This document shows positions 27,670-44,987 of a DNA stretch of 64,000 bases, in pieces. Origin of the DNA: a virus. Numbering within the stretch: the first letter of the stretch is position 1; each line of letters opens with the position of its first letter. The stretch lies in the IMG/VR virus record IMGVR_UViG_3300033153_008361, positions 1 through 64,000 of that record. One strand, 5' to 3'. The translations under genes were made by a program, and so were the position numbers. The notes beneath the pieces were generated by a model, which was not told the DNA's origin, did no database searches, and saw nothing but the letters and a program-made list of their open reading frames with translations.

Positions 27670-27901
27670 CTTCCCACTCTGCTACTGTTGTAACCGCTAA
27701 GAAAATCATTCCACCAAGGTTCAATGGCGTGATGGCTACTTGTTTTATAGTTACACTTGACGAATATTCGGCATACATCATTTTCATGGCATCTGAAACG
27801 GCCTTATCAATTCGAGCACATACCTCTTGGGCCGTACTAGACCAAGTTCCTTCCGGGGTAACAACCCCCTGAGTCATAACAGTTCTTGTGGCCGTGTTCA
27901 T
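27662..27901 (-). CDS. hypothetical protein
   Basis: ORF track. It has an ATGA junction. Confidence 0.5.
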   Translation of the reverse strand: MNTATRTVMTQGVVTPEGTWSSTAQEVCARIDKAVSDAMKMMYAEYSSSVTIKQVAITPLNLGGMIFLAVTTVAEWEDG

Positions 27902-28386
27902 CCCTGTCTCCGTTTTTTGCGAACAATCATAGAGATCGCAGCCTGAGAAACCCCGTAATATTGAGCCAATCGAACCTGGGTGATATTGCCGGTCTCGTAC
28001 TTTTCCACAATGGCCGCCACTTCCTCGGGATCTAGCTTGTGCATGTACCCAACCTTCCCTTTCTCCAGCCGGCCGAAATACTCCGTAGCCGCGTCAATCA
28101 CATGCTCAGGGCCACCCATCATGTCAGTGAAGCGATGAGTCATAGCCCCGCCATCGAGCATCTTGTCTCGAAGCCGTACACAGGCATCCGACAGCCCCTG
28201 GTTTTCCTGCTCAGCAAGTTCCAGCTTTGCCAGGAGAGCAACGGCTTCGCCAACGATGCAATAACCATCATGTTCGATCTCATCTACCTCTGCTCCCCGA
28301 CTTTCGCACATCGAACATTCATACCCGGCCGATGTATGAGGTCCGATCATTACTTCTTCAATGTAATCACCAATTATGGAAGCCAT
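27898..28386 (-). CDS. HTH protein
   Basis: The C-terminal ITQVRLAQYYGVSQAAISMIVRKK is an HTH. It has an AGGAG RBS. Confidence 0.55.
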   Translation of the reverse strand: MASIIGDYIEEVMIGPHTSAGYECSMCESRGAEVDEIEHDGYCIVGEAVALLAKLELAEQENQGLSDACVRLRDKMLDGGAMTHRFTDMMGGPEHVIDAATEYFGRLEKGKVGYMHKLDPEEVAAIVEKYETGNITQVRLAQYYGVSQAAISMIVRKKRRQG

Positions 28387-28387
28387 G

Positions 28388-28639
28388 CTATTTATCTCCT
28401 GCTACAGGTGAGTTGAATATGTCAACTAGCTCATGCAAATCCCAGCTGGCACCGGAACTCTCCATAAGGTTCGCCTGTAGAATATGCTTTATACACGTTT
28501 CTTTTTGCCCGGTGAGGATTTCTTCGACATCAACGCCCATCATTTCAAGCATGGTCGCCAATGCCAATGCCCGAAGATGCCAATGGTCTTTGTCATGAAA
28601 AACTTTATTGACTAATGAATCAGGAACCACTATCCGCAT
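28388..28639 (-). CDS. hypothetical protein
   Basis: ORF track. It has a GGGGGAAAC RBS. Confidence 0.5.
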   Translation of the reverse strand: MRIVVPDSLVNKVFHDKDHWHLRALALATMLEMMGVDVEEILTGQKETCIKHILQANLMESSGASWDLHELVDIFNSPVAGDK

Positions 28640-29118
28640 ATTTGTTTCCCCCTTCGATGAAGCTGCCTGTTAATTTCTTTTTCAATCTCATCCGGGACCT
28701 GCCAAAGGCTTAAATGCCCGCGGGCCGGGATTGGTTCATCCAATTTAATCACATCCTCGAATACCCACCCATAAGGCCCAAAGAACCATTTGTCATGACT
28801 CTCAATGACAACCCTGGCTATAACGGCCGTGGCAACAATCTTGCCCAACGGCACAGGAACTACATGGACCTCACGCTTGCTTATTCGCAAGATGCTTTCG
28901 GCCGAGAAGTGATCCATCCCCAAGCTGGCATGTAGCGCGATCCGCTGGCCGAGTGCATCGAATCTAAGATTGTTGACTAGCATTTGCAAGGGCGTAGCAT
29001 AGCCAGATAAATAATCATGATAATCCCCTCTTTGGGCATCCTTGATGATCCGCTCATTGATCCCGGCCGCTTTCAGGGCATCAACTAACTTCTTAATCGT
29101 CGGCCAGTCGTCTGACAT
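28630..29118 (-). CDS. ASCH (PUA-like) domain protein (tentative)
   Basis: The C-terminal half, VVPVPLGKIVATAVIARVV...PARGHLSLWQVP, resembles phage ASCH domains. Confidence 0.45.
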   Translation of the reverse strand: MSDDWPTIKKLVDALKAAGINERIIKDAQRGDYHDYLSGYATPLQMLVNNLRFDALGQRIALHASLGMDHFSAESILRISKREVHVVPVPLGKIVATAVIARVVIESHDKWFFGPYGWVFEDVIKLDEPIPARGHLSLWQVPDEIEKEINRQLHRRGKQICG

Positions 29119-29507
29119 TATTCCCCCTTGTCCGCTTGGTCAGGACTTACGTCCGGCCGATCAGGGCTCTTATCTGGCTTGTCCGGGCTTTCGCTCGGTG
29201 GCTCGGACCATATCGGGATGGTAAAGACCGAATTGAATAACTCAGCCGACATGATGATGTTCTTGCTGAAAAACTCCTGTTGTTCCTTCAATTCCTTGCT
29301 CTGGTTGATGAGCAATAATAGTAGGGGTTCTGTGTCTACCGTAGTTTTTCCATAGTCCGGTATATCTATATCCGTGCCTTTCTCTCTGCCCCGACGAACA
29401 GCATTTATTATCTTGTCCAGGGCTTTCACCCTGGTATCAATAGTTGCCAATTGTCCCAGTACAACATTCACCCTCGATATAGCCGTGTCCCTTTTTTGGT
29501 TATTCAT
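29118..29507 (-). CDS. hypothetical protein with Pro/Asp/Ser-rich tail
   Basis: ATG 29507 follows the upstream stop (TAACCATG). The tail is SEPPSESPDKPDKSPDRPDVSPD. Confidence 0.5.
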   Translation of the reverse strand: MNNQKRDTAISRVNVVLGQLATIDTRVKALDKIINAVRRGREKGTDIDIPDYGKTTVDTEPLLLLLINQSKELKEQQEFFSKNIIMSAELFNSVFTIPIWSEPPSESPDKPDKSPDRPDVSPDQADKGE

Positions 29508-29509
29508 GG

Positions 29510-30085
29510 TTAATCCCAATCCTGGTCATGAAATTGACCGCCTTCCTGAATTTTGCGGAAGCGATCATAATCATGTAAATAAATGAAGTCCTGAACGTCC
29601 GCATCCTTAACCGTCGGCCGAGTTTGCCCAACCATATACTTGTCCAGGGCCTCGCACTCAGCTTCTGGACGATCTCCAACCCTCACCAGAAGAAGATCCC
29701 CCAACTGGTAAACATCGACATTGTTGAACCCTTCAACCCATACCCTTTCAATAGTGTCCCGGCCGATCGTGGATGACATCATTGATTTGCAATAGGTGGG
29801 CTCTAACGCTCCATCAATATTGTGCCAGGAAGTCACCCCTTTATTATCGACTACCTGGACCTCGACTGTCCATGCTTTAGAAGCTATCGGGTACGAATGG
29901 TCAAAGAATGAGTCTACCTTTGCTGTTGCTTTCACGGCCGCTTCATCTCGGTTATCAGCGTAGACCTTCTCTATTACATAGAAGGTCTGGTCTACCTTTA
30001 CCCTGGCCCTGAAAACCGGGGGACATTGATGACTGTCGGCCGGACCAAACTTCCCGCAAATTCCACATCTTTTATAATTGCTCAT
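29510..30085 (-). CDS. hypothetical protein
   Basis: ORF track. The N-terminus contains CGICG..HQC. Confidence 0.55.
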   Translation of the reverse strand: MSNYKRCGICGKFGPADSHQCPPVFRARVKVDQTFYVIEKVYADNRDEAAVKATAKVDSFFDHSYPIASKAWTVEVQVVDNKGVTSWHNIDGALEPTYCKSMMSSTIGRDTIERVWVEGFNNVDVYQLGDLLLVRVGDRPEAECEALDKYMVGQTRPTVKDADVQDFIYLHDYDRFRKIQEGGQFHDQDWD

Positions 30086-30330
30086 GCTAACCCCCTTATC
30101 TCCGCTTCGATCTCCTGGATTTGTCGTTTGAGACCGCGGGCCTCAAATTCGATTAATTCCAGTTCTTCTTTCATATCTGGTAGTTTTTTACGAAGTTCGG
30201 CCAGTTTTTCAGCATTTTCGGCCTTTTTTCGGTCGTTTTTCAGCACTTCCACAGCTTCATCAGAACCGAAATGAAGCCGCGTCATAGCGGAACAAAAATC
30301 AATTGTTTCGTCGGTCTGATGTTTAGCCAT
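30082..30330 (-). CDS. hypothetical coiled-coil protein
   Basis: ORF track. It has a GGGGGGATA RBS. Confidence 0.5.
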   Translation of the reverse strand: MAKHQTDETIDFCSAMTRLHFGSDEAVEVLKNDRKKAENAEKLAELRKKLPDMKEELELIEFEARGLKRQIQEIEAEIRGLA

Positions 30331-30628
30331 TATCCCCCCGCCGTTTTACCTCTCCATAGGTCTTTTGCTCCCACTCCTGGAAAGTGGCAATGGTTGTTGG
30401 GGTGACTTCCAGCGCACCGCCAGGAAGCCGATCCAGCACTCCGCGCCGGCCGAGTCTACGCAAACACCTTCGAGCGCCATTGTCAATGTTGTCCCGGTGC
30501 GGGAAGGCGGTCGTGGGCACTACCCGGTCCCCCACATAGTAAAACTTGTCGAAAAGCCTCTCTAAGGCTCTCCCCTGTGCGGCCGTGATCTCGATTTTTG
30601 TAAGCTGCTCCGCTTCATCTCTGTCCAT
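30323..30628 (-). CDS. first gene of the leftward operon, hypothetical
   Basis: Start moved to ATG 30628 (MDRDEAEQ). It is preceded by GGAAGGAGTAGCGAAATG, a copy of the conserved initiation motif. Confidence 0.55.
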   Translation of the reverse strand: MDRDEAEQLTKIEITAAQGRALERLFDKFYYVGDRVVPTTAFPHRDNIDNGARRCLRRLGRRGVLDRLPGGALEVTPTTIATFQEWEQKTYGEVKRRGDNG

Positions 30629-30648
30629 TTCGCTACTCCTTCCTAATA

Positions 30649-30970
30649 CCCCCATATGTGGCCCTGGCTGAGCCTAAACCCGCGTTTTGGGCCGGCCGTG
30701 TCTACATATGGGGGGTCTGGTGCGGCTTGTAGTAACTACAATAGCATCGTCCAACCTTCAAGTTACTACCCGTTGCCCGGATTCCACAGGTCGTCCACCG
30801 TCACCTTGTACCGTGTCTTGCGGCTCAGCTATTAGCCGATTAAAAGCCGTGTCCTGCGGCCGGCCGGTGTTCCGCGTCTCCTTCTCCTACCTTGTTAAAG
30901 CAGGTCCGGCCGTTCCCCCGCGCCCTAAGCACAAGGACTACCGGACCTGCGAGGTTTAACCTACCGCACC
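30649..30970 (-). ncRNA. candidate structured RNA / long structured 5' leader of the leftward operon
   Basis: Nested perfect stems are present. They are 30649-59/30704-14 (11 bp), 30719-25/30964-70 (7 bp, closing), 30729-37/30761-69 (9 bp) and 30900-09/30941-50 (10 bp). A direct repeat CCGTGTCYTGCGG lies near 30821 and 30848. There is no credible ORF. The strand is inferred from the promoter at 31124-31152. Confidence 0.45.
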
Positions 30971-31022
30971 GTAAAGGGCTGTTTTATATGGTCGTCACGC
31001 TTCGACCTATACTTTTGTTAAA

Positions 31023-31114
31023 GAATCGCCCTGGACAATAATTCTACTTATCCCTGATTGCTCATCAACGTGCGGGTCAATTCGCAATACCTTATATATG
31101 GTGCCAGGGCGATT
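31023..31114. promoter_or_regulatory. 11-bp inverted repeat pair flanking 70 nt
   Basis: AATCGCCCTGG (31023-33) pairs with CCAGGGCGATT (31104-14). It lies immediately downstream of the predicted leftward transcription start. Confidence 0.5.
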
Positions 31115-31123
31115 ACGCTTTCT

Positions 31124-31152
31124 ATAATATCAGATGTTATAGTGTTGGTCAA
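31124..31152 (-). promoter_or_regulatory. sigma70-like leftward promoter
   Basis: The minus strand reads TTGACC (31152-47), a 17-nt spacer, then TATTAT (31129-24). Confidence 0.5.
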
Positions 31153-31607
31153 GGGCAAAGCTGCACAGGCTTGAGCTATATGGCTCAGCTGGGGGGGCTT
31201 GGGATCTCGTCACCCATTTTAGGCTATCGAATCCGGCCGTTGAATCCTACCATGATCGATTATGATAACCTAGATTGTAATAATCGATCAGGCGGTCCGC
31301 CTGATGACAGGCAGAAGCAGCGGAGATCGAGCGGTCCGCCTGTCTCCCTGATGACACAGAAGCAGAAGCGGAGATCGCCTGAGCGGACCGCGGTTTTTTT
31401 CTGTTTGTTTTTTTCTGTCTGCTTAGATAATGTTTTTCTGTGTCTGTGTCGCTGTCTCCCTGTCTGCCTGATGAGACACAGAAGCGGACCGCCTGATCGG
31501 TCTGTGTGTGTGTTTGATGAGACAGAAGCGGACCGCCTGATCGGTCTGTGTGTCTCCCTGTGTGGCGATCTCTGTGTGTGTCTGCTTCTGTGTCCGCTTC
31601 TGTGTCT

Positions 31608-31631
31608 CCGCCTAATACAGGCGGGTTTTTT
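31608..31631 (+). terminator. terminator-like hairpin
   Basis: CCGCCT-aatac-AGGCGG is followed by GTTTTTT. Confidence 0.55.
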
Positions 31632-31747
31632 CTGTCTGTGTGTCGAGATCAGGCGGAGATCGGACCGCTCAGGCGATCTCTGCTTCTGTGTCGCATTCTA
31701 AGCGGAGACAGGCGGAGATCAGGCGGTCCGCTTTCTATATAGTACAG

Positions 31748-31772
31748 ACCGCCTATTTTTGTGGCGGTTTTT
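31748..31772 (+). terminator. terminator-like hairpin
   Basis: ACCGCC-tatttttgt-GGCGGT is followed by TTTT. It sits just upstream of the rightward promoter. Confidence 0.5.
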
Positions 31773-31786
31773 CCCTGTGATCTCAC

Positions 31787-31816
31787 TTGACAATAATTGA
31801 CATTATAGGTTATGAT
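31787..31816 (+). promoter_or_regulatory. sigma70-like rightward promoter
   Basis: TTGACA (31787-92), an 18-nt spacer, then TATGAT (31811-16). It is followed by the hairpin GGTCCGCGG-aaaaa-CCGCGGACC. Confidence 0.45.
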
Positions 31817-31882
31817 TTAGGTCCGCGGAAAAACCGCGGACCGCTCAGGCAGACACAAGAACACACAAGGAGTAAAGCGATA

Positions 31883-32356
31883 ATGACAGGCATTACAGAG
31901 AATACAGGAAAAACCGATCTAATTATTAGAGATCACAGACTCACAGAAGCGGACCGCCTGTATAAAAAATCATTCGATCTACACTTGAAAGCGGAGACAC
32001 AACTCGCACTATCTGAGATCATACGAGATCAGGCGGTCCGCTTAAAACTACAGGCGGAGAAAGCAGAAGCAGAAGCGGAGACAGGCGATCATTATATGGT
32101 TTTTCATTTTACTTGTGATCTAGTCATAGGGCACAATTTTACAGGGAGTGAAGTTATATTTTCCGCTATAGATGAGATCGAGATCATAAGACACACAGAA
32201 GCGGACCGCAAAAAATACGATCAATTAATTGTCCGCTTCTGCTTAGAAAAAAATCCGCTATTCCATATTGATACATTGTATTTTACTCTGAGCGATATAT
32301 CACATATTGACGATCACACAGGCGGACAATATAAACTCACAGAGATCACAATATAA
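31883..32356 (+). CDS. small TEADR-motif protein, paralog family member
   Basis: ATG 31883 follows AAGGAGTAAAGCGATA. The track start at 31787 is the promoter TTGACA. The protein has TEADRL, AEAEAE, DHYMVF and EIEI blocks shared with 32596-32913. Confidence 0.65.
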   Translation: MTGITENTGKTDLIIRDHRLTEADRLYKKSFDLHLKAETQLALSEIIRDQAVRLKLQAEKAEAEAETGDHYMVFHFTCDLVIGHNFTGSEVIFSAIDEIEIIRHTEADRKKYDQLIVRFCLEKNPLFHIDTLYFTLSDISHIDDHTGGQYKLTEITI

Positions 32357-32411
32357 CGGACCGCGGACCGCTCAGGCGGTCCGCCTGTACTTTACAAGGA
32401 GTAAAGCGATT
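32357..32411 (+). repeat. intercistronic hairpin-plus-RBS cassette, copy 1
   Basis: CGGACC-GCGGACCGC-TCAG-GCGGTCCGC-CTGTACTTTAC-AAGGAGTAAAGCGATT, then ATG. Confidence 0.85.
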
Positions 32412-32537
32412 ATGATCAAAGTATGGTTTTTTTGTGTTCTTGTTAGCATTCTGCTTTTGTACTACACAGAAGCGATCACAGCGGTTTTTTTTCTGATCGC
32501 TGTGGTTTTATATGAAACATGGAAGACGATCAATTAA
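32412..32537 (+). CDS. 41-aa membrane micropeptide
   Basis: The ATG follows the conserved cassette. The product is MIKVWFFCVLVSILLLYYTEAITAVFFLIAVVLYETWKTIN. Confidence 0.5.
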   Translation: MIKVWFFCVLVSILLLYYTEAITAVFFLIAVVLYETWKTIN

Positions 32538-32595
32538 TATCAGACCGCGGACCGCTCAGGCGGTCCGCCTGTACTTTACAAGGAGTAAAGCGATA
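32538..32595 (+). repeat. intercistronic hairpin-plus-RBS cassette, copy 2
   Basis: The stem is 32547-55/32560-68 (9 bp, perfect) with loop TCAG. CTGTACTTTACAAGGAGTAAAGCGATA follows. Confidence 0.85.
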
Positions 32596-32913
32596 ATGAA
32601 CGATCACATATTGACAGAAGCAGCGGAGACAGAAGCGGACCGCCTAAGCATAGAAGCGGAGATCAAGCGATCTCACACTCGACACAGAGAGACTCACCAC
32701 AGCGATCATTTTATGGTTTTTTCTGTCTGTGGTGATTTTACCCATTATGATCACCTGATCGCTTCTGTCTCCCTGATGGCAGACACAGAGATCGAGATCG
32801 ATTATATTGGCGAGCACACTATGATCGGTCTGATTATTTTGCCAAATGCTACAGAAGCGGAGATCACAGAAGCGGACCGCCTGTATAGTGAATTACAAGG
32901 AGTAAAGCGATAA
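32596..32913 (+). CDS. small TEADR-motif protein, paralog family member
   Basis: ATG 32596 (MNDHILTEAAETEADRL). DHFMVF and EIEI blocks are shared with 31883-32356. The ORF ends inside the next initiation motif (TAATG). Confidence 0.65.
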   Translation: MNDHILTEAAETEADRLSIEAEIKRSHTRHRETHHSDHFMVFSVCGDFTHYDHLIASVSLMADTEIEIDYIGEHTMIGLIILPNATEAEITEADRLYSELQGVKR

Positions 32914-33410
32914 TGACACACAACAATTGTGGTTTTAACAGACCACAGAGATCGAGCGGTCCGCGGTCCGCTTCTGTACTTTCTCCGCCTGAGTGTGAGA
33001 ACACATGGCGATCAGAGATAAAAAACCGCCACACATGCAAAGTAAAAAATACACAGGGAGACTCCGATCTCACTCTGATCTCTGACACACAGGAGATCGA
33101 TCACATTGGCGATTATTTAGGCATTAATCGCCTGAGTGAGGATTATGGTTGTCTGTTTGTCGAGATCGCTGATGGCGATTATGGTCATATATTGGGCTGT
33201 GAGTCTAATATTCCATACTTAGAAAAAATATTATATGACATAGATTATTATGAGGAAACATGGCGGTTTTTTCAGGAGATCGCAGAAAAACACAGCGAGA
33301 TCTATTGTCCTATGTGTGGCGGAGACTCCGCTCACTTGGGCACACTTGGCACACTTGATCATTATCGCTGTGTAATGTGTCATATGGAATTCTCACGATC
33401 TCAGGAGTAA
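32913..33410 (+). CDS. hypothetical protein with C-terminal zinc ribbon
   Basis: It follows the conserved initiation motif. It contains CPMCGG...HYRCVMC. Confidence 0.6.
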   Translation: MTHNNCGFNRPQRSSGPRSASVLSPPECENTWRSEIKNRHTCKVKNTQGDSDLTLISDTQEIDHIGDYLGINRLSEDYGCLFVEIADGDYGHILGCESNIPYLEKILYDIDYYEETWRFFQEIAEKHSEIYCPMCGGDSAHLGTLGTLDHYRCVMCHMEFSRSQE

Positions 33411-33420
33411 AGCGATAATA

Positions 33421-33476
33421 ACAGACCGCGGACCGCTCAGGCGGTCCGCCTACACTTTACAAGGAGTAAAGCGATA
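33421..33476 (+). repeat. intercistronic hairpin-plus-RBS cassette, copy 3
   Basis: It has the same unit with CTACACTTTAC. It is preceded at 33404 by a degenerate initiation motif lacking an ATG (GGAGTAAAGCGATAATA). Confidence 0.85.
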
Positions 33477-33791
33477 ATGAACGATCAAACAATAGCAGAG
33501 ATGGCATATACAGAAGCGGACCGCCTGAACACAGAAGCGGACCGCCTACAGGCAGAAGCGATCAAAATACAGGCAGAAGCGGACCGCCTGATCGAAAAAA
33601 TCACGAGCGGACCGCCTGATCTTGTGTATTACCAATACACAGGGAGATCGGATTTTTTCAATTATGAGAATTCGGGTGATCTCTGTTTTCACACTCCGCC
33701 ACAAGCGGAGAAAGCAGCGATCAATAATGGATTAATTACATGGCGAGTGATCATGGTCTGTGAGTATGTTGTCAAGACAGGGAAAGTATAA
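33477..33791 (+). CDS. small TEADR-motif protein, paralog family member
   Basis: MNDQTIAEMAYTEADRLNTEADRLQAEAIKIQAEADRL... Confidence 0.65.
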   Translation: MNDQTIAEMAYTEADRLNTEADRLQAEAIKIQAEADRLIEKITSGPPDLVYYQYTGRSDFFNYENSGDLCFHTPPQAEKAAINNGLITWRVIMVCEYVVKTGKV

Positions 33792-33792
33792 A

Positions 33793-34458
33793 ATGAACGA
33801 TCTAATACTGGCAGAAGCGGAAAAAAAGAAAGCAGAAGCGGACCGCCACAGAAAAACCGCGGACCGCCTGATCGCAGAAGCGGACCGCCTGTCAAACGTA
33901 TTTTATCTTAGAGATGAGATCGCAGAGAAAGCGGACCGCCTACAGGCAGAAGCGGACCGCCTGATCGCTTTCGCTGATCGCCTGATGGCAGAAGCGGAGA
34001 AAGCAGAAGCGGACCGCCTGATCGATAAAATCAGAAGCGGAGAAAAAATCAGAACATGGAAACATAAAACCGGCCTGTTTTTTATCGATCAGGAGATCAC
34101 AGAGATCGAGATCGAATTATGGCAGACAGGCAGAAGCAGAAGCGGAGACAGAGATCGCCTGTCTTATGTTTTAAGTGAGAATAGTGTGCCTGTATTTTAT
34201 GGTTTATCTGATCTAGGAATTCCGCCACACATGGCAATAGATAGCGATCTCTCTGTGTGTGCCTGTCTGTTTTTTCTCGCACTCAGGCAGGGAGACACAG
34301 ACAGTGATTATTTTGAAAACTACACAGACACACAATTACAATGGATACACTCACAGACCGCCACAGAGATCAGGGAGATCGTGAGCATATGTGAGGAAAA
34401 TGATCTCACACTCGATCAGGCGATCTCTGTTATGTTAGCATGGGAAACAGAAAAATAA
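33793..34458 (+). CDS. ADRL-repeat coiled-coil protein, paralog family member
   Basis: ATG 33793 (MNDLILAEAEKKKAEADRH). Seven ADR(L/H) repeats are present. It has a GGGAAAG RBS. Confidence 0.65.
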   Translation: MNDLILAEAEKKKAEADRHRKTADRLIAEADRLSNVFYLRDEIAEKADRLQAEADRLIAFADRLMAEAEKAEADRLIDKIRSGEKIRTWKHKTGLFFIDQEITEIEIELWQTGRSRSGDRDRLSYVLSENSVPVFYGLSDLGIPPHMAIDSDLSVCACLFFLALRQGDTDSDYFENYTDTQLQWIHSQTATEIREIVSICEENDLTLDQAISVMLAWETEK

Positions 34459-34516
34459 TATCAGACCGCGGACCGCTCAGGCGGTCCGCCTGTACTTTAC
34501 AAGGAGTAAAGCGATT
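34459..34516 (+). repeat. intercistronic hairpin-plus-RBS cassette, copy 4
   Basis: It is identical in core to copy 2. Confidence 0.85.
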
Positions 34517-34969
34517 ATGATCAGTTTAGAAGCAGCAAAAAATCTCACACATGGCGAGATCATTTATCACATAAGTCATAGGAATGCCGATCAGACTCCG
34601 CAGAGATGGCGCATTAATGGCAAAGTGAAAACATGGAGAACCAGACCACAGGAGATCAGTATACCTATAAAACACGGTTTATATGATTATGGTTATTTAA
34701 CACACAATGATCTTGATCTTGTGTGTCTGTCAGAAGCAGAAGCGGAGATCGTGACGAACTCAGGCACAGAGATCGGACATTATGATTATTTATATCGAAA
34801 CATAAAACACAGAGATTATATTTATGGCTGTGTGTTACCACAGGCGGACCGCCTACAGAGATCGATCATTGTAGGCGGAGATCGGACAATTGATGATCAG
34901 GGAGTGACAACAATTACAGGCGGAATCACCTATTATTTTCCTATAGGTGAGGAATCCGGCCTAAATTGA
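34517..34969 (+). CDS. hypothetical protein
   Basis: ORF track. It follows the conserved cassette. Confidence 0.6.
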   Translation: MISLEAAKNLTHGEIIYHISHRNADQTPQRWRINGKVKTWRTRPQEISIPIKHGLYDYGYLTHNDLDLVCLSEAEAEIVTNSGTEIGHYDYLYRNIKHRDYIYGCVLPQADRLQRSIIVGGDRTIDDQGVTTITGGITYYFPIGEESGLN

Positions 34970-34998
34970 CAGAAAAACCACAAACAGACCACAAACAG

Positions 34999-35036
34999 AC
35001 CACAGAGATCGATCAGGTGATCTCTGTGGTTTTTTC
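34999..35036 (+). terminator. rho-independent terminator
   Basis: ACCACAGAGATC-gatcaggt-GATCTCTGTGGT is followed by TTTTT. Confidence 0.8.
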
Positions 35037-35560
35037 TGTGTGTAGACCACAGAAGCAGCGGAGATCGGACCGCCTGAGCGGTCCGCCTGTCTGCCTGTCT
35101 GCTTCTGCGGTCTGTGTGCCTGTCTCCCTGTCACTTTGATCGAGATCGGACCGCTCAGGCGGTTTTTTTCCGATCAGGCGGTCCGCCTGTCTGCCTGTCT
35201 GCTTCTGCTTCTGTGGTCTGTGTCATCAGGCAGAAGCAGAAGCAGAGATCGCCTGAGCGGACAATACAGGCGATCTCTGTGTCTGCCTGTCTGCTTCTGC
35301 CTGTCTCCGCTGCTTCTGCTTCTGCTTCTGCGGTCTGTGTGTCTGTCTCCCTGTCACTTTGATCGAGATCGGACCGCTCAGGCGGAGATCGATCAGGCGG
35401 TCCGCCTGTCTGCTTCTGTTATCCCAGGACACAGACCGCCACAGAGATCAGGCGGACCGCGGACCGCTCAGGCGGAGATCGATCAGGCGGTCCGCCTGTC
35501 TTCCCAGCTGGGATCGGCCGACTGGCAGAAGCAGCGGAGATCAGGCGATCATGGTTCATT
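35037..35560. repeat. word-repeat island B (ORF-free)
   Basis: It uses the same vocabulary. A 62-bp direct repeat (35101-35162 and 35324-35385) has one mismatch. A long imperfect palindrome lies at 35224-35300. Confidence 0.85.
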
Positions 35561-35691
35561 CACACGCGCAAAAATGATCGGTGAGCAGAATTTTATAATG
35601 TTTTCGGCCGGGTCTTTTTGGTTTTTCTGGTTTTTTTTATTGGTTTACGGCCGGGTTTTTCCGGCGCGATTACACACAAGGAGTAAAGTAT

Positions 35692-36063
35692 ATGATCACA
35701 GCTATAGTTATGGGCGCATATGGTAAAAAAGATGAGTACAGAGTGGATCGACTTGCTAACCGTGGCGAGTGGTTCGGTAAAACTTGGTTCGTTGGGATCG
35801 GTTGCGGGTTCGATATACACCGCGTAGTAGTAGAAGCGGACAATGAGTCAGAGGTGATCGACGCCTTGACGGATTCGGCCGCTGGTCACTTGATAAAAGT
35901 TGATGAGGAATGCCCCCATCAAGATCCTGATCAATGGGATCAATGTAATTGCACATTTGCCGGTAATTTTTCTGATCGCGTCGATCTGGATGACATTCGA
36001 ATTCTGAAGCGTTGCAAAGTAAAATATTTTGAACCGGCCGATCGTTGGTTGGATATTAGCTAA
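35692..36063 (+). CDS. hypothetical protein
   Basis: ORF track. It has an AAGGAGTAAAGTAT start region. Confidence 0.6.
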   Translation: MITAIVMGAYGKKDEYRVDRLANRGEWFGKTWFVGIGCGFDIHRVVVEADNESEVIDALTDSAAGHLIKVDEECPHQDPDQWDQCNCTFAGNFSDRVDLDDIRILKRCKVKYFEPADRWLDIS

Positions 36064-36420
36064 ACAGACAGACACAGACCACAGGATCAGACAGGATCGG
36101 CCGGTTTTCGGCCGGTCCTGAGTGTGATCGCGTCTCTGTATGGTTTTACCTGTCTGCCTGTCTGCCTGTCTGCCTGAGCGGAGATCGGACCGCTTGATCG
36201 GTCTGCTTCTGCTTCTGTGTCTCCGCTTGTGCCTGTCTGCCTGTGTTCTCATTGGGCGGACCGCTCAGGCGATCTCTGTGTGTGTGTCCGCCTGTCTGCC
36301 TGTGTCCTCATCAGGCGGACCGCTCAGGCGATCTCTGTGTCTCCCTGTCTGCCTGTCTGCTTCTGTGTGTCTGCCTGTGTCCTCATCAGGCGGAGATCGG
36401 CCGGTTCTACCACAGGTAAA
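36064..36420. repeat. word-repeat island C (ORF-free)
   Basis: It has CTGTCTGCCTGTCTGCC runs. GCGGACCGCTCAGGCGATCTCTGTGT occurs twice, near 36256 and 36315. Confidence 0.85.
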
Positions 36421-36532
36421 ACGCGCCGGCGCGGAAAGTCTGAACGGCCGTTCGATCCTTGCCGGCCAACGGTCCGCGGCGAGTGTGGTCGAGCGGGCAG
36501 CGGGCGGACCGTGGGCGGGGGCGCTTCTACTA

Positions 36533-36640
36533 TATACACGCGGGATCGACATAGGCGAGCAGAATTTACACGCGCTAAGGGGTTCGGCCGCCTTAAAAAA
36601 TACACGCGGCCGGGGAGGTGCGAGCAGAATTTACACGCGG
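36533..36640. promoter_or_regulatory. tandem ~65-bp unit carrying a 20-bp perfect direct repeat (operator or iteron candidate)
   Basis: GCGAGCAGAATTTACACGCG occurs at 36555-74 and 36620-39. ATACACGCGG occurs at 36534 and 36600. A related copy (CACACGCGC...GAGCAGAATTT) lies at 35563-35594. Confidence 0.6.
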
Positions 36641-36697
36641 ATCGAAGGGGGGCGGGCTGGAGTTGGCAGCAAATCGGGCGGATCGGTTCTCATTTAC

Positions 36698-36725
36698 TTG
36701 ACAAGCAATTATAAGGTGTTATTAT
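36698..36725 (+). promoter_or_regulatory. sigma70-like promoter
   Basis: TTGACA (36698-703), a 16-nt spacer, then TATTAT (36720-25). Confidence 0.5.
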
Positions 36726-36781
36726 CTATCTATCCGACGCGGGCCGCGGGCGGTCCGCCTTAGTAATAAGGAGCAAGCGAA

Positions 36782-37549
36782 ATGATAAATGATCAGAATT
36801 TAGAGATCGGGCAATTGGTAAAGGTTAGCAGATCGCTCACCGTGGGCGATCTATATGGGGCGGGACATTCTCAGGCGGGGGAAGTGGTGATCGTGGCGGG
36901 GGAAGTCGGCCGGGTTATATCGCCTGTCATTGCAGAGGCGCGGGACGGGTCGAAGTTGGATCGGCCGTGGGTTGTGGTTCGCTTTTTCTTCACTTTGCCG
37001 GATCACTACCGGCGCGATCCAACCTGTGAACCGGTCCACAATATAAAGATCGGGCGGCTGGAAGCGGTGACAGAGGCGGAAGCGGTGATCCTGATTATGA
37101 TCGGGCGCTATGGTAAACCGTGGGCCAATACGAGACAGGATCGGGCGGCTATGGCCTCATATATGGATCAGCGGCCGTTATATGACGATCCCGGCGTTTT
37201 GGGTAACTGGAGATCAGCGGCTTCTATCTTGTCAGAAGTGGCGGAGCGGGTGAGCCTTGCTGCTTGGGGGGTTCATCCGGCCGGGGAGACGGATCTCACC
37301 GTATACATGGAAGCGGGCGATCCGGGTGAGCGGGTCAATTGTGAGGGGTTCGTTGTGGACGGGGACGGGGGGATCGTCTTTGATACTGTAGGCGGCGGGC
37401 CGTATCTCTGCGAAAGTTGCAACAAATCGATCCGGTTCTTGACATGCTCAGGGCGGGCGATCTGTGAGGCATGTCTGGACGCGGAGATCGCAGAGGCGGA
37501 AGCGGTGACAGGGGCGGGCTATATTACGCCTAATGAGGCGATCATATAA
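36782..37549 (+). CDS. hypothetical protein
   Basis: ORF track. It has an AAGGAGCAAGCGAA start region. The C-terminus contains CESC...CEAC. Confidence 0.65.
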   Translation: MINDQNLEIGQLVKVSRSLTVGDLYGAGHSQAGEVVIVAGEVGRVISPVIAEARDGSKLDRPWVVVRFFFTLPDHYRRDPTCEPVHNIKIGRLEAVTEAEAVILIMIGRYGKPWANTRQDRAAMASYMDQRPLYDDPGVLGNWRSAASILSEVAERVSLAAWGVHPAGETDLTVYMEAGDPGERVNCEGFVVDGDGGIVFDTVGGGPYLCESCNKSIRFLTCSGRAICEACLDAEIAEAEAVTGAGYITPNEAII

Positions 37550-37914
37550 TGGCTATACGAAACGGTATAAAGTGGGGTAACGGGCGGATCTGGCAAATGA
37601 TCGGGAAAGCAGCAAGGGAAGCGGAGCGGGCCGAGCAGATCGAGCGGGTGAAAGCAGAGACGGCCGCGGGGGGTTTTCCGCTGTGCCTCTGTGACATATG
37701 CCTATATTATGAAAACGATCCCGCGGACCGGGCCAAGTGGCGGATCATTATGCACAGGCGGCGATCACAACTGATCGCGCTTAGCCGTCACTATCTGCGA
37801 AACTTTCACGGCTTCACAGCGGCGGAGTGTGATCAGTTCGGTCCTGAGTGTGATCGGGTCATTCTGGCACATAATGACGCGGCGATCCGTTGTGGCGGTG
37901 ATCCTATTGTATAA
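37549..37914 (+). CDS. hypothetical protein
   Basis: ORF track. It has a TAATG junction. Confidence 0.6.
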   Translation: MAIRNGIKWGNGRIWQMIGKAAREAERAEQIERVKAETAAGGFPLCLCDICLYYENDPADRAKWRIIMHRRRSQLIALSRHYLRNFHGFTAAECDQFGPECDRVILAHNDAAIRCGGDPIV

Positions 37915-37961
37915 CCAACGCGGGCCGGGTTCGGCTTGCCTTAGCTAAGGAGTAAAGCGAA

Positions 37962-40900
37962 ATGATACAGATCCACGATAAACAGACAGAAGCGAACGCG
38001 GGCCAAGCGGAACGGGCGACACTTTACCACCGATCCGGGCTTGGCCTTGGTTATAACAAGCGGGAAGTAAAGCGGATCGAATGGGCGCGGGGTCAATATG
38101 CCCAATATGATCAGGCGGTCCGGCTACGCTGGAGAGAACCCCGGCAACGCAAAGATCGCCAAACATGGCTCACTTATAAGCCGGACGCGGTGATCGTGGC
38201 GGGCTGGAATAACCCCGATCCGCCGTCCTCATATAACACAACTAAGGACAAAGACGGAACGATCCAACGCGGGAAATATACCAGTTTCGATCCCCGCTTT
38301 ACTTCCGATTTTCGGTCATGGCTTGCGGACGCGGGCCTCACGGTGATCGCGGACTTTCACAAGGCGGAGACAGGCGATCAGGGGTCGATCTCCCTTACAG
38401 AGATCGCGGAGCGGGGGCGGGCTGAGCGAGAAGCAGAAGCGGAGAAAGCAACGCGGATCGCGTCTGTTATAACGGAAGCAGAACCGGCCGAACTGGAAGC
38501 AGAGACGGAAGCGGGCGATCTTGGGGCTTATGATACGGCGGATAATTGGATCAATCGTTGGGGTGACTTCTACAAAGACACACAACAACACAACGCGGAA
38601 GCGGCCAAACTGGAAACAGAACCCGATCCCCTTGCTGATTATTCTAACGGGGATCTACTTGGTGATTATTTGGATCTGTGTCCTCATTATGATCAATCTG
38701 ATGAGGATATAACGGAGATCAGGACCGTACTCACGGCGCGGGGCTTCTTATTTGTGGCTCAGGCGGACGGGGGCGGGCCAACAGAGGCGGAAGTCAAAAC
38801 CACGGCGGATCGGCTCATCAGGGAAGCAAAAACGGCGGACCGGGCCAACGGACGCGGGCCGGGGTTCGATATATGGACTAAGGCACAAGCAGCGGCCAAA
38901 GCAGAAGCGGCGGAAGCTGAGCAACACGCGGAGACAGAACCCGCGGACCGGGTAAAGATTGAACCGGCCGACGCGGATCGCTTTGAATATATCGAACCCG
39001 AACCCGATCCAGTTATGCCAGCGGGCGCGGCGGAGTCAATCACAGGTAAAGAAGTTGGAAAAATGATCCGGCCACGGTTGCGGGCTATCTTTCCCGGCGT
39101 CACGTTCTATGTAAGGACTGATCATAGTTCACTTGATATAAGCTGGATCGACGGGCCAACGGGGGCGGAAGTCAAAAAGATCGCGGGCCAATATGACGGC
39201 GGCGGCTTCGATGGCATGATCGATCTTGGTTATTGTATTTATCATTGGTTAATGCCAGATGGATCGACGCGGATCGCCTATTCCAGCGGTACAGCGGGAT
39301 CGGGGGGTTCTGTGTCCGCGTTTGGCGGTGACGGGTCAAAGCCTGATCCGGGGGCGCGGTTGGTTAGCTTCCACACGGAATATATAAACTGTAAACGGGC
39401 GCATTCGGCCGACTTCTTAAAGCGGGCGGGGGAGCAAATCAGCGGTGAGTATAATTGGCCTGTGCCAAAGATTGAAGCTAGTACAACATGGATCTCACAC
39501 TCCAAAACTATTGACGGCGCGTCATTTGTCCATGATCCGATCAACGCTCCAGCCCCCGCGGATCATTTTCGGGCGGGCGGGTCGCCTTATGTCCGATCTT
39601 TGGGCGGGGTTTTCGATCACGCGGCTCACGATATAAGCTATTATGAACCGCCAAAAGCAAAGCCGAAAGCTAAGCGGGCCGCGGGCGGGGCTTCTGTCGA
39701 TTATGATCCCGCGGAAGCGGTGATCACCTATAGTGAGCGGAACGGCGCGATCTGGACATGGATCGAAACGGTAAAACCCCCGGCCGATGTGAGGGACGGG
39801 CTAACGGGGATCGGCTTCTTTTGGTGGCGGAAGCGGGGCAAATGGGCCGCCAAGCAAGAGATCGCAGAGGACACGATCCGCGCTATACTGGAAGGGGGAT
39901 CGGGCGCTCAGGGAGACGGGGACGGGGGCGGAGAAGCTGATCCGCCGTCCTCATCCCCAAGCAAGCCAAAGACTAAGGCCGAACCGGGGACAGAACCCGA
40001 TCAAGCTAAGGCGGAGAAGCTGATCGCCTTGGCGGACTCCTTCGACAAACAGATCCAAAAGAAGCGGGACACGTTCAAAGGGGCTAACCTCACTCACAGG
40101 CGGGCGGAGTTCATAGCGTCCGCAAACTATGACGCGGATCGAATGCAAGAAGCACAAATGATCCTGATCGCCTTGGCGGACCTGTGGACAGTTGGAAGCG
40201 TCCCGGCGCAATTTAGGAAAATGGGAACTAAAAAAACGGCGCTGGAGTTGACTCACAATATCCGGGCGCGGGCTAAGTATGGGGATAAGTACCCATCAGA
40301 CTATAATGATCGTGTTTGGGGGTCATGGGGCGATTATAACGCGGCTCACGCATGGGCGGACCGGGTGATCTCAGGGGTCGATAACACTGAGCGAGACGCG
40401 GAGCGAAAGATCGCCGGGCTGGAGCAAAACGCCAAATTTGCCAAGATCCGCGGGTTTTTCCCCACTCCGCGGGCCGTGGCGGATCTTATGCTGGAGCATG
40501 TGAACCTCACAGAGGGGGATCTTGTTTTAGAACCCTCAGCGGGATCGGGCGCTCTATGCGATATGATCGCGGAATACTTCCCACGCGCCACGCTTCACGC
40601 GGTCGAAGTGTCTCACATGCTCAGGGAGATCCTCACCTTAAAGGGGCACGAGTTGATCGGCCGGGACATTTACGATCTCGATCCTGTGGATAGCATCGGA
40701 AAATATGACGCGATCATAATGAATCCCCCATTTGAAAAAATGCAAGACGCCGATCACGTTCGCTTTTGTTATGCGATGTTAAAAAGCGGCGGAACGCTAG
40801 TGAGCGTTATGTCCCCGTCACCCTTCCACAATTCCACTCACGCGGCGGCGGATTTCCGATCATGGTTCGATACATTTGGCGGTGAGAAGTTCGATCTCCC

Positions 40901-40967
40901 CGTTGGCAGCTTCAAAAAGTCCGGGACGGGCGTAAGTTCTTGTTTTATTGTCATCAGCAAAGATTAG
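37962..40967 (+). CDS. large polyvalent-type protein with C-terminal gamma-class N6-adenine DNA methyltransferase domain
   Basis: The C-terminus has motif I (LEPSAGSGAL) followed by motif IV (IIMNPPF). The upstream 800 aa contain Ala/Glu-rich linkers and unassigned globular modules, for example FYVRTDHSSLDISWIDGP and GIGFFWWRKRGKW. Confidence 0.75.
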   Translation: MIQIHDKQTEANAGQAERATLYHRSGLGLGYNKREVKRIEWARGQYAQYDQAVRLRWREPRQRKDRQTWLTYKPDAVIVAGWNNPDPPSSYNTTKDKDGTIQRGKYTSFDPRFTSDFRSWLADAGLTVIADFHKAETGDQGSISLTEIAERGRAEREAEAEKATRIASVITEAEPAELEAETEAGDLGAYDTADNWINRWGDFYKDTQQHNAEAAKLETEPDPLADYSNGDLLGDYLDLCPHYDQSDEDITEIRTVLTARGFLFVAQADGGGPTEAEVKTTADRLIREAKTADRANGRGPGFDIWTKAQAAAKAEAAEAEQHAETEPADRVKIEPADADRFEYIEPEPDPVMPAGAAESITGKEVGKMIRPRLRAIFPGVTFYVRTDHSSLDISWIDGPTGAEVKKIAGQYDGGGFDGMIDLGYCIYHWLMPDGSTRIAYSSGTAGSGGSVSAFGGDGSKPDPGARLVSFHTEYINCKRAHSADFLKRAGEQISGEYNWPVPKIEASTTWISHSKTIDGASFVHDPINAPAPADHFRAGGSPYVRSLGGVFDHAAHDISYYEPPKAKPKAKRAAGGASVDYDPAEAVITYSERNGAIWTWIETVKPPADVRDGLTGIGFFWWRKRGKWAAKQEIAEDTIRAILEGGSGAQGDGDGGGEADPPSSSPSKPKTKAEPGTEPDQAKAEKLIALADSFDKQIQKKRDTFKGANLTHRRAEFIASANYDADRMQEAQMILIALADLWTVGSVPAQFRKMGTKKTALELTHNIRARAKYGDKYPSDYNDRVWGSWGDYNAAHAWADRVISGVDNTERDAERKIAGLEQNAKFAKIRGFFPTPRAVADLMLEHVNLTEGDLVLEPSAGSGALCDMIAEYFPRATLHAVEVSHMLREILTLKGHELIGRDIYDLDPVDSIGKYDAIIMNPPFEKMQDADHVRFCYAMLKSGGTLVSVMSPSPFHNSTHAAADFRSWFDTFGGEKFDLPVGSFKKSGTGVSSCFIVISKD

Positions 40968-40994
40968 GGCCGGGAACGGTCAAAGGATCGTATT

Positions 40995-41195
40995 ATGTAC
41001 TATGTATTTTCCTACTATACCAAAAGATACAACGCCAAAGGGGAGATCGTGACCGAGTACGCGCCACGGCTACACACGATCAAAAAGAATATTGAGACGG
41101 AAGCGGAAGCACAACAGGCGGTGAGGGATTATGACGCCACTCACAAACGCGGGCCGCTCGGCCGGGTTGCTGGATATGATGACCAAAGACGCTAA
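40995..41195 (+). CDS. hypothetical protein
   Basis: ORF track. It has an AAAGGA RBS. Confidence 0.5.
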   Translation: MYYVFSYYTKRYNAKGEIVTEYAPRLHTIKKNIETEAEAQQAVRDYDATHKRGPLGRVAGYDDQRR

Positions 41196-41208
41196 AGGAG
41201 ATCAACCA

Positions 41209-41622: not shown

Positions 41623-41672
41623 ATAAACACGCGCTAGAGCGATCCAGCGCCTTAAAATAAGGAGTAAGCGAA

Positions 41673-42350: not shown

Positions 42351-42562
42351 TGGACAAAAACGCGCTCACGATCACAATAAACGGCCGTAATTGGCGGGGG
42401 TCACGCTTTGTAGATGAGGTTGATCTCGCCGTCCTGGAAAAAATGATCGCCATGTACCTGGAGCACAAACAGTACGCGATCTTTGAAACACGCCAAGCGC
42501 CGGATCATATTGTTTATGATTATACGGTCACGGTAACGCGCTCCAGCGGGGGATCGGCTTAA
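42350..42562 (+). CDS. hypothetical protein
   Basis: ORF track. It has a TAATG junction. Confidence 0.5.
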   Translation: MDKNALTITINGRNWRGSRFVDEVDLAVLEKMIAMYLEHKQYAIFETRQAPDHIVYDYTVTVTRSSGGSA

Positions 42563-42843: not shown

Positions 42844-42863
42844 GGCCGGGAAGGAAAAGCGAA

Positions 42864-43547: not shown

Positions 43548-43611
43548 GGCGTTTGGGGTATCACAGGTTATATCGGGCCACTTAGGGCCGTAAGGCCAAA
43601 GGATAAGCGAA

Positions 43612-44971: not shown

Positions 44972-44987
44972 TAAGGAGTAAAGCGAA

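Follow-up and report, generated by a model that had tools for sequence, protein, structure and literature searches.

Repeated two-hairpin cassettes at gene junctions in the early operon of an uncultured tailed phage

Introduction

Why should four of the gaps between small, dissimilar genes of a single viral operon be filled with almost the same sequence? The question is raised by positions 1-64,000 of IMGVR_UViG_3300033153_008361, an IMG/VR record of an uncultured tailed phage of ~90 kb; this 64-kb stretch is the window to which all positions cited here refer. A preliminary description of the window drew attention to four intercistronic units, each a perfect hairpin fused to a fixed translation-initiation region (TIR), in a rightward run of small open reading frames (ORFs). 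We have followed up these units, which we call cassettes c1 to c4, and find that each folds as two hairpins, the second of which presents the Shine-Dalgarno (SD) sequence of the next gene in its loop. We read them, tentatively, as RNA-level punctuation of a polycistronic early message, and we weigh below what speaks for and against that reading.

Four gene junctions carry the same unit

The cassettes lie on the + strand and run from the ORF1 stop to the ORF2 ATG (c1, 32354-32414), from the ORF2 stop to the ORF3 ATG (c2, 32535-32598), from the ORF4 stop to the ORF5 ATG (c3, 33408-33479), and from the ORF6 stop to the ORF7 ATG (c4, 34456-34519). Aligned with their flanks, they share a unit of ~62 nt that spans the upstream TAA stop codon to the downstream ATG(A), and pairwise identity is 91-98% inside the unit vs. 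20-33%, which is background, over 60 nt on each side. The single exception among the flanks is the sequence downstream of c2 and c3, which is 75% identical because ORF3 and ORF5 have a common N terminus. These are true repeats with sharp boundaries, as the preliminary description had held when it spoke of four near-identical units between divergent ORFs.

Within the unit, the 22-nt hairpin sequence GCGGACCGC-TCAG-GCGGTCCGC occurs in four exact + strand copies (at 32363, 32547, 33428, and 34468), with 0 expected from shuffles. The ribosome-binding-site/TIR module AAGGAGTAAAGCGATWATG occurs in six exact copies, at 31867, 32396, 32580, 32897, 33461, and 34501, against 0.05 expected by chance, and a degenerate seventh copy lies at 33402. 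We refer to the two exact TIR copies that lack the cassette hairpin as r0 (before ORF1) and r3 (at the ORF3/ORF4 junction). The unit consensus proposed earlier stands for the 22-nt hairpin and needs small corrections elsewhere: c1 has AACGGACC in place of ATCAGACC, and c3 has CCTACAC in place of CCTGTAC.

L027, assembled independently from a different sample, matches the window at 99.985% identity over 32654-45657, a span that covers c3, c4, and junction r3. Two more assemblies match over 36094-39320 (L028; 100%, the downstream arrays and ORF9) and over 28482-32032 (L012; 99.96%, the upstream array, promoter, and 5' hairpin), so that other assemblies of the same phage are 99.96-100% identical, without structural differences. 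An assembly artefact is excluded for the features covered by these three assemblies, which among the cassettes means c3 and c4 only, c1 and c2 lying outside them.

Each unit folds as two hairpins

Folding with RNAfold predicts two hairpins per unit, both in 4/4 copies, and cassettes folded in contexts of 81-91 nt reach -25 to -30 kcal/mol (z-scores, -2.6 to -5.6). The first, a GC-rich hairpin (32363-32384 in c1, 32547-32568 in c2, 33428-33449 in c3, and 34468-34489 in c4), begins 6-17 nt past the upstream stop codon and on its own has a 9-bp stem, a UCAG loop, and a free energy of -19.1 kcal/mol. The second (32390-32406, 32574-32590, 33455-33471, and 34495-34511, respectively) has a 6-bp stem, CUUUAC/GUAAAG, worth -3.2 kcal/mol, and its loop is the SD sequence AAGGA, placed 10 nt before the AUG. 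The preliminary description had recognized the 9-bp hairpin and had missed the second one, with the SD in its loop. The probability that the SD is unpaired is 0.82-0.98 for the six genes with an exact TIR, compared with 0.03-0.88 (median near 0.4) for the other right-arm genes.

Variation among the copies follows this fold. All seven variable alignment columns (7/7) fall in unpaired linkers, and 0/39 hairpin columns vary (P = 5e-4; P = 6e-3 when the stop-codon region is left out). Two parsimony-informative columns fail the four-gamete test, one grouping {c1,c3}/{c2,c4} and the other {c1,c4}/{c2,c3}, and recombination, gene conversion, or recurrent mutation is therefore required. The earlier suggestion that purifying selection or gene conversion keeps the units alike fits both of these results.

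The anatomy also bears on two familiar roles for intercistronic hairpins. The preliminary description compared the stem with the RNase III processing sites between T7 early genes, and the location of the cassettes between cistrons of an early operon suits that comparison, as does a 3-bp extension that RNAfold adds to the GC stem in c1, c2, and c4 (12 bp with a 3-nt bulge). T7 R-sites, however, are irregular duplexes of ~20 bp, in many cases interrupted by an internal loop. Here the stem falls well short of that, with 9 perfect base pairs closed by a tetraloop, the 3-bp extension is broken in c3, and the cassettes are without an Rfam match. The likeness is a weak one, and we consider it most improbable that the hairpins are RNase III sites.

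The hairpins might instead be leaky intrinsic terminators or attenuators, in which the stem plus CUGUACUUUAC ends some transcripts and expression falls stepwise along the operon, termination possibly being relieved by antiterminator loading at a 5' hairpin with an A-rich loop. A canonical intrinsic terminator we reject, since the stem is present and the U tract is not. As stated earlier, the hairpin lacks such a tract: the longest T run after the GC stem is 3 and starts 6 nt past the stem (tail CTGTACTTTAC). A leaky version has more to recommend it. The 9-bp stem has 8 GC pairs, 4 of the 8 nt after it are T, and its -19.1 kcal/mol lies within the range of -10.6 to -22.2 kcal/mol of real terminators; a lenient scan for terminators picks up three of the cassettes on the + strand (c1, c2, and c4) and c3 on the - strand only, and the promoter-proximal hairpin does have an AAAAA pentaloop. 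Yet three of the four terminator-like hairpins compared bear T5-T6 runs directly after the stem, and in the cassettes the T-rich segment is itself paired within the SD hairpin. No boxA-like element was noticed, though no systematic boxA search was made. We therefore regard attenuation as distinctly improbable.

The initiation module recurs across the right arm

The fixed TIR, which the preliminary description had made part of the unit, is indeed present in the cassettes but is not specific to them. It is one local form of an extended consensus, AAGGAGTAAAGCGA[T]WATG, that precedes at least 15 + strand genes of the right arm. All copies lie within 31.8-48.8 kb; the sole match on the - strand has 3 mismatches, and the 29 left-arm gene starts have the generic AAGGAG only. 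The module stands without a hairpin at 31867 and 32897 and in slightly diverged form at ~9 further right-arm gene starts. Exact or near-exact consensus TIRs are found also at 37947 and 44973, and diverged ones precede the genes that start at 35692, 36782, 41673, 42864, 43612, 47722, and 48742. The extended consensus is absent in the relatives L001, L003, L006, L013, and L015.

The two hairpin-free copies in the early operon differ in their surroundings. Copy r0 (31867-31885, + strand) is exact and precedes ORF1, in the 5' untranslated region (UTR) of the predicted early transcript. Upstream of it, at the predicted transcript start, stands a different hairpin (31820-31842, + strand; GGUCCGCGG-AAAAA-CCGCGGACC, -18.1 kcal/mol), a related GGTCCGCGG-AAAAA-CCGCGGACC element 4 nt after the -10 element of the rightward promoter, at the place where the preliminary description had located a relative of the cassette hairpin. 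The 5'-UTR element has ACCGCGGACCGCTCAGGC and the TIR in common with the cassettes, but the arm with which it forms its hairpin lies upstream instead of downstream. It retains the segment CCGCGGACCGC, paired with a different upstream partner; what is conserved here is the hairpin and not the pairing partner. The 5' end of a transcript is a classic position for a stabilizer hairpin.

Copy r3 (32897-32915, + strand) is an exact TIR without the left hairpin arm, preceded by GCGGACCGCCTGTA, which resembles the right arm. It lies inside the 3' end of ORF3, whose reading frame crosses the module and ends with the TAA of GATAATG, in overlap with the start of ORF4. Vestiges of the module occur as well. 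One (33402-33420, + strand; CAGGAGTAAAGCGATAATA) extends across the ORF4 stop directly before c3, and another, a vestigial consensus TIR (GCGGAGTAAAGCGAAATG) with a 5-codon mini-ORF, is seen at 46854-46900, just before the real TIR of gene 46901.

The pairing of a hairpin with a TIR is likewise repeated in the right arm. GC hairpins, unrelated in sequence and ending 15-27 nt short of the ATG, stand at five or more other junctions, all on the + strand. At the ORF9 junction (36739-36784), downstream of a second rightward promoter (36698-36725, + strand), a hairpin GCGGGCCG-CGGG-CGGUCCGC with one G-U pair (36739-36758) is followed by a diverged TIR, TAAGGAGCAAGCGAAATG. The junction before the polyvalent protein gene (37920-37964) combines a hairpin GCGGGCCG-GGUU-CGGCUUGC with two G-U pairs (37920-37939) with an exact consensus TIR, AAGGAGTAAAGCGAAATG. 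Further GC hairpins of this kind lie at 41631-41650 and at about 42835-42848, the latter position being read from the fold, and the junction at 47686-47724 consists of a hairpin ACCGGCUG-AGAUA-CGGUCGGU (47686-47706) and the TIR AAAGGAGTAAACGAAATG. Counting over the right arm, at least 9 of ~15 TIR copies have an upstream inverted repeat, with arms of 8-9 bp that are perfect or contain G-U pairs and whose sequence differs from junction to junction. Where these junction hairpins depart from Watson-Crick pairing, the sense strand has G-U in 5/6 positions.

The stem is made from the commonest word of the early region

Within a 5.5-kb early region made of short iterated words, no word is more frequent than the hairpin arm, GCGGWCCGC. 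The preliminary description treated the arm as a cassette feature, which holds for the four cassettes, but words of this type (GC-GGACCGC) number 48 between 31.2 and 36.8 kb, in both orientations and inside genes too, and only 9 are found elsewhere in the window. The word is itself palindromic around a central base (GCGG-W-CCGC). Of the extended form CAGGCGGWCCGCCTG there are 7 exact copies, and 24 when 2 mismatches are allowed, where 0.14 are expected, and the right arm of the hairpin with its flanks makes a perfect 15-bp palindrome, CAGGCGGTCCGCCTG, that is also present in the noncoding arrays on both sides of the operon. Among the coding copies, 14/18 share a reading frame, (E)ADR(L), and recur at 21-nt spacing as a heptad repeat, and others read SGPPD, QAVRL, or SGPRSAS; the noncoding copies are divided evenly, with 12 per strand.

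Three noncoding word arrays, occupied by words on both strands, lie around the operon. The first (31280-31780), between the divergent promoters, contains GCGGWCCGC, CAGAAGC, GAGATC, and CTGTGTC together with three + strand terminator-like hairpins. The second (35040-35560), after the operon, has 76% of its 9-mers iterated, local duplications that are 98-100% identical, and an inverted version of the hairpin at 35065-35086. The third (36060-36400) includes a 59-nt tandem unit (2.2 copies) and runs of the 8-nt CCTGTCTG. Other iterated words, CAGAAGC, GAGATC, CTGTCTGC, and CTGTGTG, are interleaved in the arrays, and nested local duplications have periods of 6-223 nt, many of them 97-100% identical. 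The terminators of the region and the 5' hairpin are likewise built from words. More broadly, 31170-36450 forms a cryptically simple zone of 6-15-nt words, on both strands and in genic as well as intergenic sequence, with a counterpart at ~1250-2400 of L003.

L003 represents a related phage type, in which the anchor protein is 54% identical to that of the window and the terminase (seen in L002) 50%. Its divergent region is equally dense in words but uses other ones, GCCGGCCTGG, GGCCTGGT, and GGTCGGTCGG, and one of its terminators is formed by its own word and the reverse complement of that word. The L003 array unit has no matches in IMG/VR, and a search for relatives of the L003 right-arm protein found none.

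This pattern is what raises the possibility that the repeated element acts as DNA. On that explanation a dimeric DNA-binding protein specific to the phage, such as an immunity-type repressor, would recognize GCGGWCCGC or CAGGCGGWCCGCCTG. Bound in and around the operon, it would silence the genes through promoter occlusion and blocked elongation; the junction copies would serve in the manner of mycobacteriophage L5 stoperators, and the RNA hairpin would result incidentally from two neighboring sites. The confinement of 48 copies to 31.2-36.8 kb, the even strand distribution of the noncoding ones, and the excess of the 15-bp palindrome all agree with an operator or roadblock. So do the word elements just past the -10 of both rightward promoters (31820-31842 and 36739-36761) and the L003 region, where the same architecture with a different word is what repressor-operator coevolution would give. 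The phage encodes an integrase and a weak-scoring helix-turn-helix (HTH) protein (an HTH_3/Cro-like match in 27898-28386, below the gathering score), and for the analogous inverted repeats of the extended start-associated sequence (ESAS) its authors preferred DNA-binding sites (PMC3203893). Several observations point the other way. No cognate binding protein was identified; the 15-bp palindrome is broken in c3 (…CCTA), where the 9-bp stem is still perfect; the concentration of coding copies in one frame, as EADRL heptads, looks like protein-repeat expansion; and the hairpins of other right-arm junctions are unrelated in sequence, so that a single site-specific protein would not recognize them. 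Stoperators, moreover, are asymmetric, lie in one orientation, and are spread genome-wide (PMC9283540), whereas the sites here are near-palindromic, on both strands, and within 5.5 kb. We judge a DNA operator or roadblock to be unlikely as the explanation of the cassettes, although it is the main rival to an RNA-level role; the protein or antiterminator binding site named in the preliminary description may also apply.

The same region also suggests that the cassettes might have no dedicated function and be recent duplicates that arose through tandem duplication or slippage, the hairpin reflecting a chance head-to-head placement of abundant words. Nested near-identical duplications fill the region, and a word next to its reverse occurs in the noncoding arrays too, for example, at 35065-35086. 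ORF3, ORF5, and ORF6 have N termini in common, and some gene-plus-leader duplication therefore happened. Chance duplication does not, however, account for identity that ends sharply at the stop codon and the ATG, with flanks at background; for variation that avoids both hairpins; for the same design, in other sequences, at unrelated right-arm genes; or for an SD that is uniformly accessible. We find this account quite unlikely.

A broader proposal, which we offer as doubtful, is that a lineage-specific palindromic word (GCGGWCCGC here, the GCCGGCCTGG type in L003) is used in three ways: as the DNA site of a lineage-specific factor for immunity, silencing, or a roadblock; as material for RNA hairpins, namely, the 5' cap, the intercistronic hairpins, and terminators; and as in-frame coding heptads of the EADRL kind in early proteins of rapid birth. 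If this were true, the cassettes would be the most conspicuous part of a larger system that generates early genes from word arrays and inserts them by way of a standard hairpin-TIR adaptor. A Chi-site idea, prompted by GAAGCGG, the reported Chi sequence of Staphylococcus, was dropped: the noncoding copies occur in both orientations, and the EADRL repeat accounts for those in coding sequence.

Other compositional features of the window are recorded here in their own right. GATC is enriched ~5-fold at 32-40 kb (~100 per 4 kb vs. ~20 elsewhere). CGGCCG is 9-fold overrepresented in the window, with 144 copies that are mostly genic and in all three codon phases, and GGCC, CCGG, and CGGCCG are depleted ~5-fold in the early operon (32-36 kb). 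A further repeat, GAGCAGAATTT(TATAATG or ACACGCG), has three copies on the + strand, at 35583, 36556, and 36622, and might be a second promoter class or a binding site.

Searches for known elements

Comparison with known repeat and RNA families left the cassettes apart from all of them. Rfam 15, searched over 28000-40000 at E ≤ 1, gave five spurious microRNA, small nucleolar RNA, and small RNA matches far below gathering scores and 0 at the cassettes. The exact hairpin 22-mer and the TIR have no matches in IMG/VR. In 185,579 species-representative genomes (GTDB), the 22-mer has 7 matches, and in JGI metagenome contigs it has 4; all are single-copy with unrelated flanks, and it never occurs more than once per genome. 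Such single-copy chance matches rule out a host repetitive extragenic palindromic (REP) sequence or bacterial interspersed mosaic element, a mimic of a clustered regularly interspaced short palindromic repeat (CRISPR), and a signal shared among phages. The preliminary description had proposed a check against CRISPR repeats of candidate hosts, and the absence of the 22-mer in multicopy form among the species representatives answers it in the negative.

Integron attC sites were considered and rejected, the core motifs RYYYAAC and GTTRRRY both being absent from the cassette, as was the cyanobacterial HIP1 signature (0 GCGATCGC sites). None of the four cassettes contains a sigma70 promoter, the nearest match (33390-33419, 9/12) lying in the vestigial module before c3. 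A replication origin is a weak candidate: the words do form direct repeats at 21-bp spacing, but DnaA boxes are no more frequent than chance would give, 30-37 kb has none, and the genes for the initiator-like HTH_36 protein and for DnaB are ~20 kb away at 54.2-56.5 kb. Sites of the CsrA type have the form A(N)GGA in hairpin loops, and RegB-, RegA-, and CsrA-like genes were sought: none was found in the proteins tested, a weak negative in the case of CsrA.

Orthologous junctions were sought in relatives. The polyvalent protein, used as an anchor, yielded a 4-kb contig and one 35% relative without repeats; the terminase and anchor loci L002-L015 end before the early region or differ in gene order, and no homologs of the cassette-flanked ORFs occur in the relatives' loci that were fetched. 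Terminase identity to a further relative, P0002, is 69%.

A tentative role as RNA punctuation

Our preferred interpretation, at a confidence somewhat short of even, is that the units punctuate a polycistronic early mRNA at the RNA level; they would insulate or stabilize the message, keep the SD accessible, and be held uniform by duplication or conversion together with selection. Anatomy, copy identity, variation pattern, SD accessibility, and the arm-wide design are read directly from the sequence; from them we infer action at the RNA level, read-through, a role in decay or insulation, and any trans-acting factor.

The proposed sequence of events begins with a sigma70-driven transcript of the early operon (promoter at 31787, terminator at 34997-35038) that would carry standardized intercistronic junctions. 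The GC hairpin lacks a U tract, and transcription therefore probably reads through it. Most likely it would serve as a barrier, shielding the upstream cistron from 3'-exonucleolytic decay, and as an insulator, keeping the upstream coding sequence from pairing with the next ribosome-binding site. Alternatively, it may cap the 5' end of the downstream cistron after cleavage in the A/U-rich linker, and RNA processing of this kind would place the new 5' ends in the linkers UAAUAUCAG or CUGUAC|UUUAC. The SD-in-loop hairpin and the fixed spacer would then give each cistron an identical, highly accessible initiation site. The spacer is exactly conserved here and across the right arm, which suggests a common recognition event, and the fixed TIR may serve as a handle for a trans-acting translational regulator or nuclease on early or middle messages, on the model of T4 RegA and RegB.

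As to origin, the copies would be products of local duplication in a region whose short words change through slippage and duplication; the stem would come from the commonest of these words, and the copies would since have been held alike by gene conversion or recombination and by selection on both hairpins. The repeats may further act as recombination points at which small genes come and go; the vestigial TIRs at 33402 and 46854 and the four-gamete incompatibility are hints of such recombination.

Several considerations weigh against an RNA-level role. The cassette is confined to this phage, and hence relatives supply no covariation. The four copies are paralogues, whose identical stems could simply reflect recent duplication. 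The palindromic pattern of the word in DNA would look like an operator for a dimeric DNA-binding protein. The asymmetry of G-U over A-C in the junction hairpins, which could serve as a test of the strand on which pairing matters, runs in the right direction but is confounded by GC skew, and we do not rely on it. The RNA role is proposed from sequence and predicted folds, and a particular host RNase repertoire cannot be assumed. With these points taken into account, we conclude that the feature is real, nonrandom, and probably functional, and that the extended TIR of the right arm and the word-built early region are its more unusual aspects.

Comparison with known elements

The closest known analogue is the start-associated sequence (SAS) with its extended form, ESAS, of Cluster K mycobacteriophages, a fixed SD-containing sequence placed 3-7 nt before the start codon at 11-19 gene starts in the nonstructural arm only (PMC3203893; Pope et al. 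2011). Upstream of about half of the copies stand imperfect inverted repeats of 17 bp, separated by a 4-13 bp spacer (PMC3203893). The resemblance is close: both are asymmetric sequences around an SD core a few nucleotides before the start, conserved beyond the likely pairing with 16S rRNA and with a preference for ATG; both occur in many copies, in one orientation, and in the nonstructural arm only (here the right arm, 31.8-48.8 kb); more loosely, given arms of 8-9 bp here, roughly half of the copies have a short-spacer inverted repeat directly upstream; and the consensus depends on the lineage. The sequences nonetheless differ (GGGATAGGAGCCC there, AAGGAGTAAAGCGA[T]WATG here), as do the phage lineages, which are unrelated. 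The inverted repeats of ESAS are imperfect and depart from symmetry in ways that do not support RNA pairing, whereas the cassettes have a perfect 9-bp stem and the other junctions keep their pairing; the stem here also comes from a word that floods the coding and noncoding sequence of its region. By this comparison, the cassettes are analogues of SAS/ESAS and not members of that family.

T4-type phages carry promoter-early stem-loops (PeSLs), which are mobile cassettes with a regulatory role (Arbiol et al. 2010, PMC2839356; Comeau et al. 2014, PMC4122927); recombination between them gives rise to mini-circles and, among close relatives, to indels or replacements. Like them, the units described here are near-identical short stem-loop cassettes beside small ORFan genes in a plastic early region, and their copies are plausible recombination points. 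Unlike a PeSL, which has a strong sigma70 promoter and an effective terminator, the cassette is without a promoter and without a U tract, and would couple cistrons in one transcript instead of dividing the operon into transcription units. In Cluster A mycobacteriophages, stoperators are asymmetric, 13 bp long, and oriented one way relative to transcription; they are distributed genome-wide, and a known monomeric repressor binds them and blocks elongation (PMC9283540, PMC6550527). They share with the present words the use of many short phage-specific sites, often at stop/start junctions, and a lineage-specific sequence would fit immunity specificity; near-palindromic sites on both strands, confined to 5.5 kb, set our phage apart.

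T4 early TIRs contain the targets of RegB and RegA (Uzan and Miller review, PMC3014915). A common TIR sequence in early genes allows coordinated posttranscriptional shut-off there, and the right-arm TIR would be alike in this respect, but the RegB consensus GGAGRAYARAA is not matched here. From the side of mRNA decay, the cassettes also resemble the intercistronic stabilizer hairpins and REP sequences of enterobacterial operons in having a stable stem-loop, without a U tract, between cistrons. Those elements can protect upstream mRNA from 3' exonucleases and set differential expression within an operon. REP sequences form repeat families of host chromosomes, in contrast to the 22-mer, which is multicopy in none of the 185,579 species genomes.

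Repeated gene-start elements of the SAS/ESAS kind and PeSLs have been known for over a decade, and the function of SAS/ESAS has never been shown. The phage described here is an unusually clean independent case, with a perfect stem that is competent to form in RNA, an SD in a defined loop, and unrelated stems in the same position elsewhere; an RNA-level role is therefore directly testable with simple reporters. If the junctions do insulate, they would be natural counterparts of the parts used in synthetic biology for context-independent operon expression and would hint at the way in which phages add ORFan genes to an early operon. A separate puzzle, about the evolution of early regions and small genes, is posed by the early region built from words, with other words in a related phage.

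Operon and genome context

Genes lie on the - strand to the left of ~31 kb and on the + strand to the right of it, and GC skew switches at the same place. The early operon is preceded by a near-consensus sigma70-type promoter (31787-31816, + strand; TTGACA-18-TATGAT, 11/12 matches) and contains seven small + strand ORFs: ORF1 (31883-32356), ORF2 (32412-32537), ORF3 (32596-32913), ORF4 (32913-33410), ORF5 (33477-33791), ORF6 (33793-34458), and ORF7 (34517-34969). It is closed by a strong intrinsic terminator (34997-35038, + strand) with a 14-bp stem, -22.2 kcal/mol, and T6. No above-threshold match to ORF1-ORF7 was obtained in Pfam, PHROGs, or PADLOC, ORF4 and ORF5 reaching only E ~0.001-0.004. 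Residues 1-76 of ORF7 (34517-34744) form a small and widespread phage domain, for which 1,087 relatives were counted (231 at E ≤ 1e-10); the modules therefore precede genuine genes. This N-terminal domain has a confident small β-barrel model; it has no significant PDB match by sequence or fold and no Pfam family, and its more than 1,000 relatives are in metagenomes.

Beyond the early region, the phage encodes a large terminase, a head protein, an LPD29-methyltransferase polyvalent protein, DnaB, an integrase, and an initiator-like protein of the HTH_36 family. Searches for a close GenBank relative gave no megablast match, with a best tblastn identity of 36% for the terminase, and no tRNAs were found. 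Two or three DNA methyltransferases are encoded (the C terminus of 37962-40967, 56802-58511, and 58678-60192). On the - strand, the gene at 14246-15256 is DpdA-like: it has a PHROG "PAPS reductase" match, and the syntenic 336-aa gene of L002, which adjoins a Vut_1 transporter-like gene, bears the Pfam DpdA domain. The DpdA-like gene suggests that the phage DNA carries a 7-deazaguanine modification.

Leftward of the operon, a noncoding stretch of ~470 nt (30656-31124) forms a - strand leader between a candidate leftward promoter (31152-31124) and the first leftward gene. It has no Rfam match, and L003 has a similarly long noncoding stretch, with poly-C tracts, at ~2290-2870. At the far left of the window, positions 1-3000 (- strand) are dense in repeats with periods of 33, 36, 99, and 117 nt, whose units are Gly-X-Y (collagen-like) triplets; these are probably ordinary fiber genes, unrelated to the cassettes.

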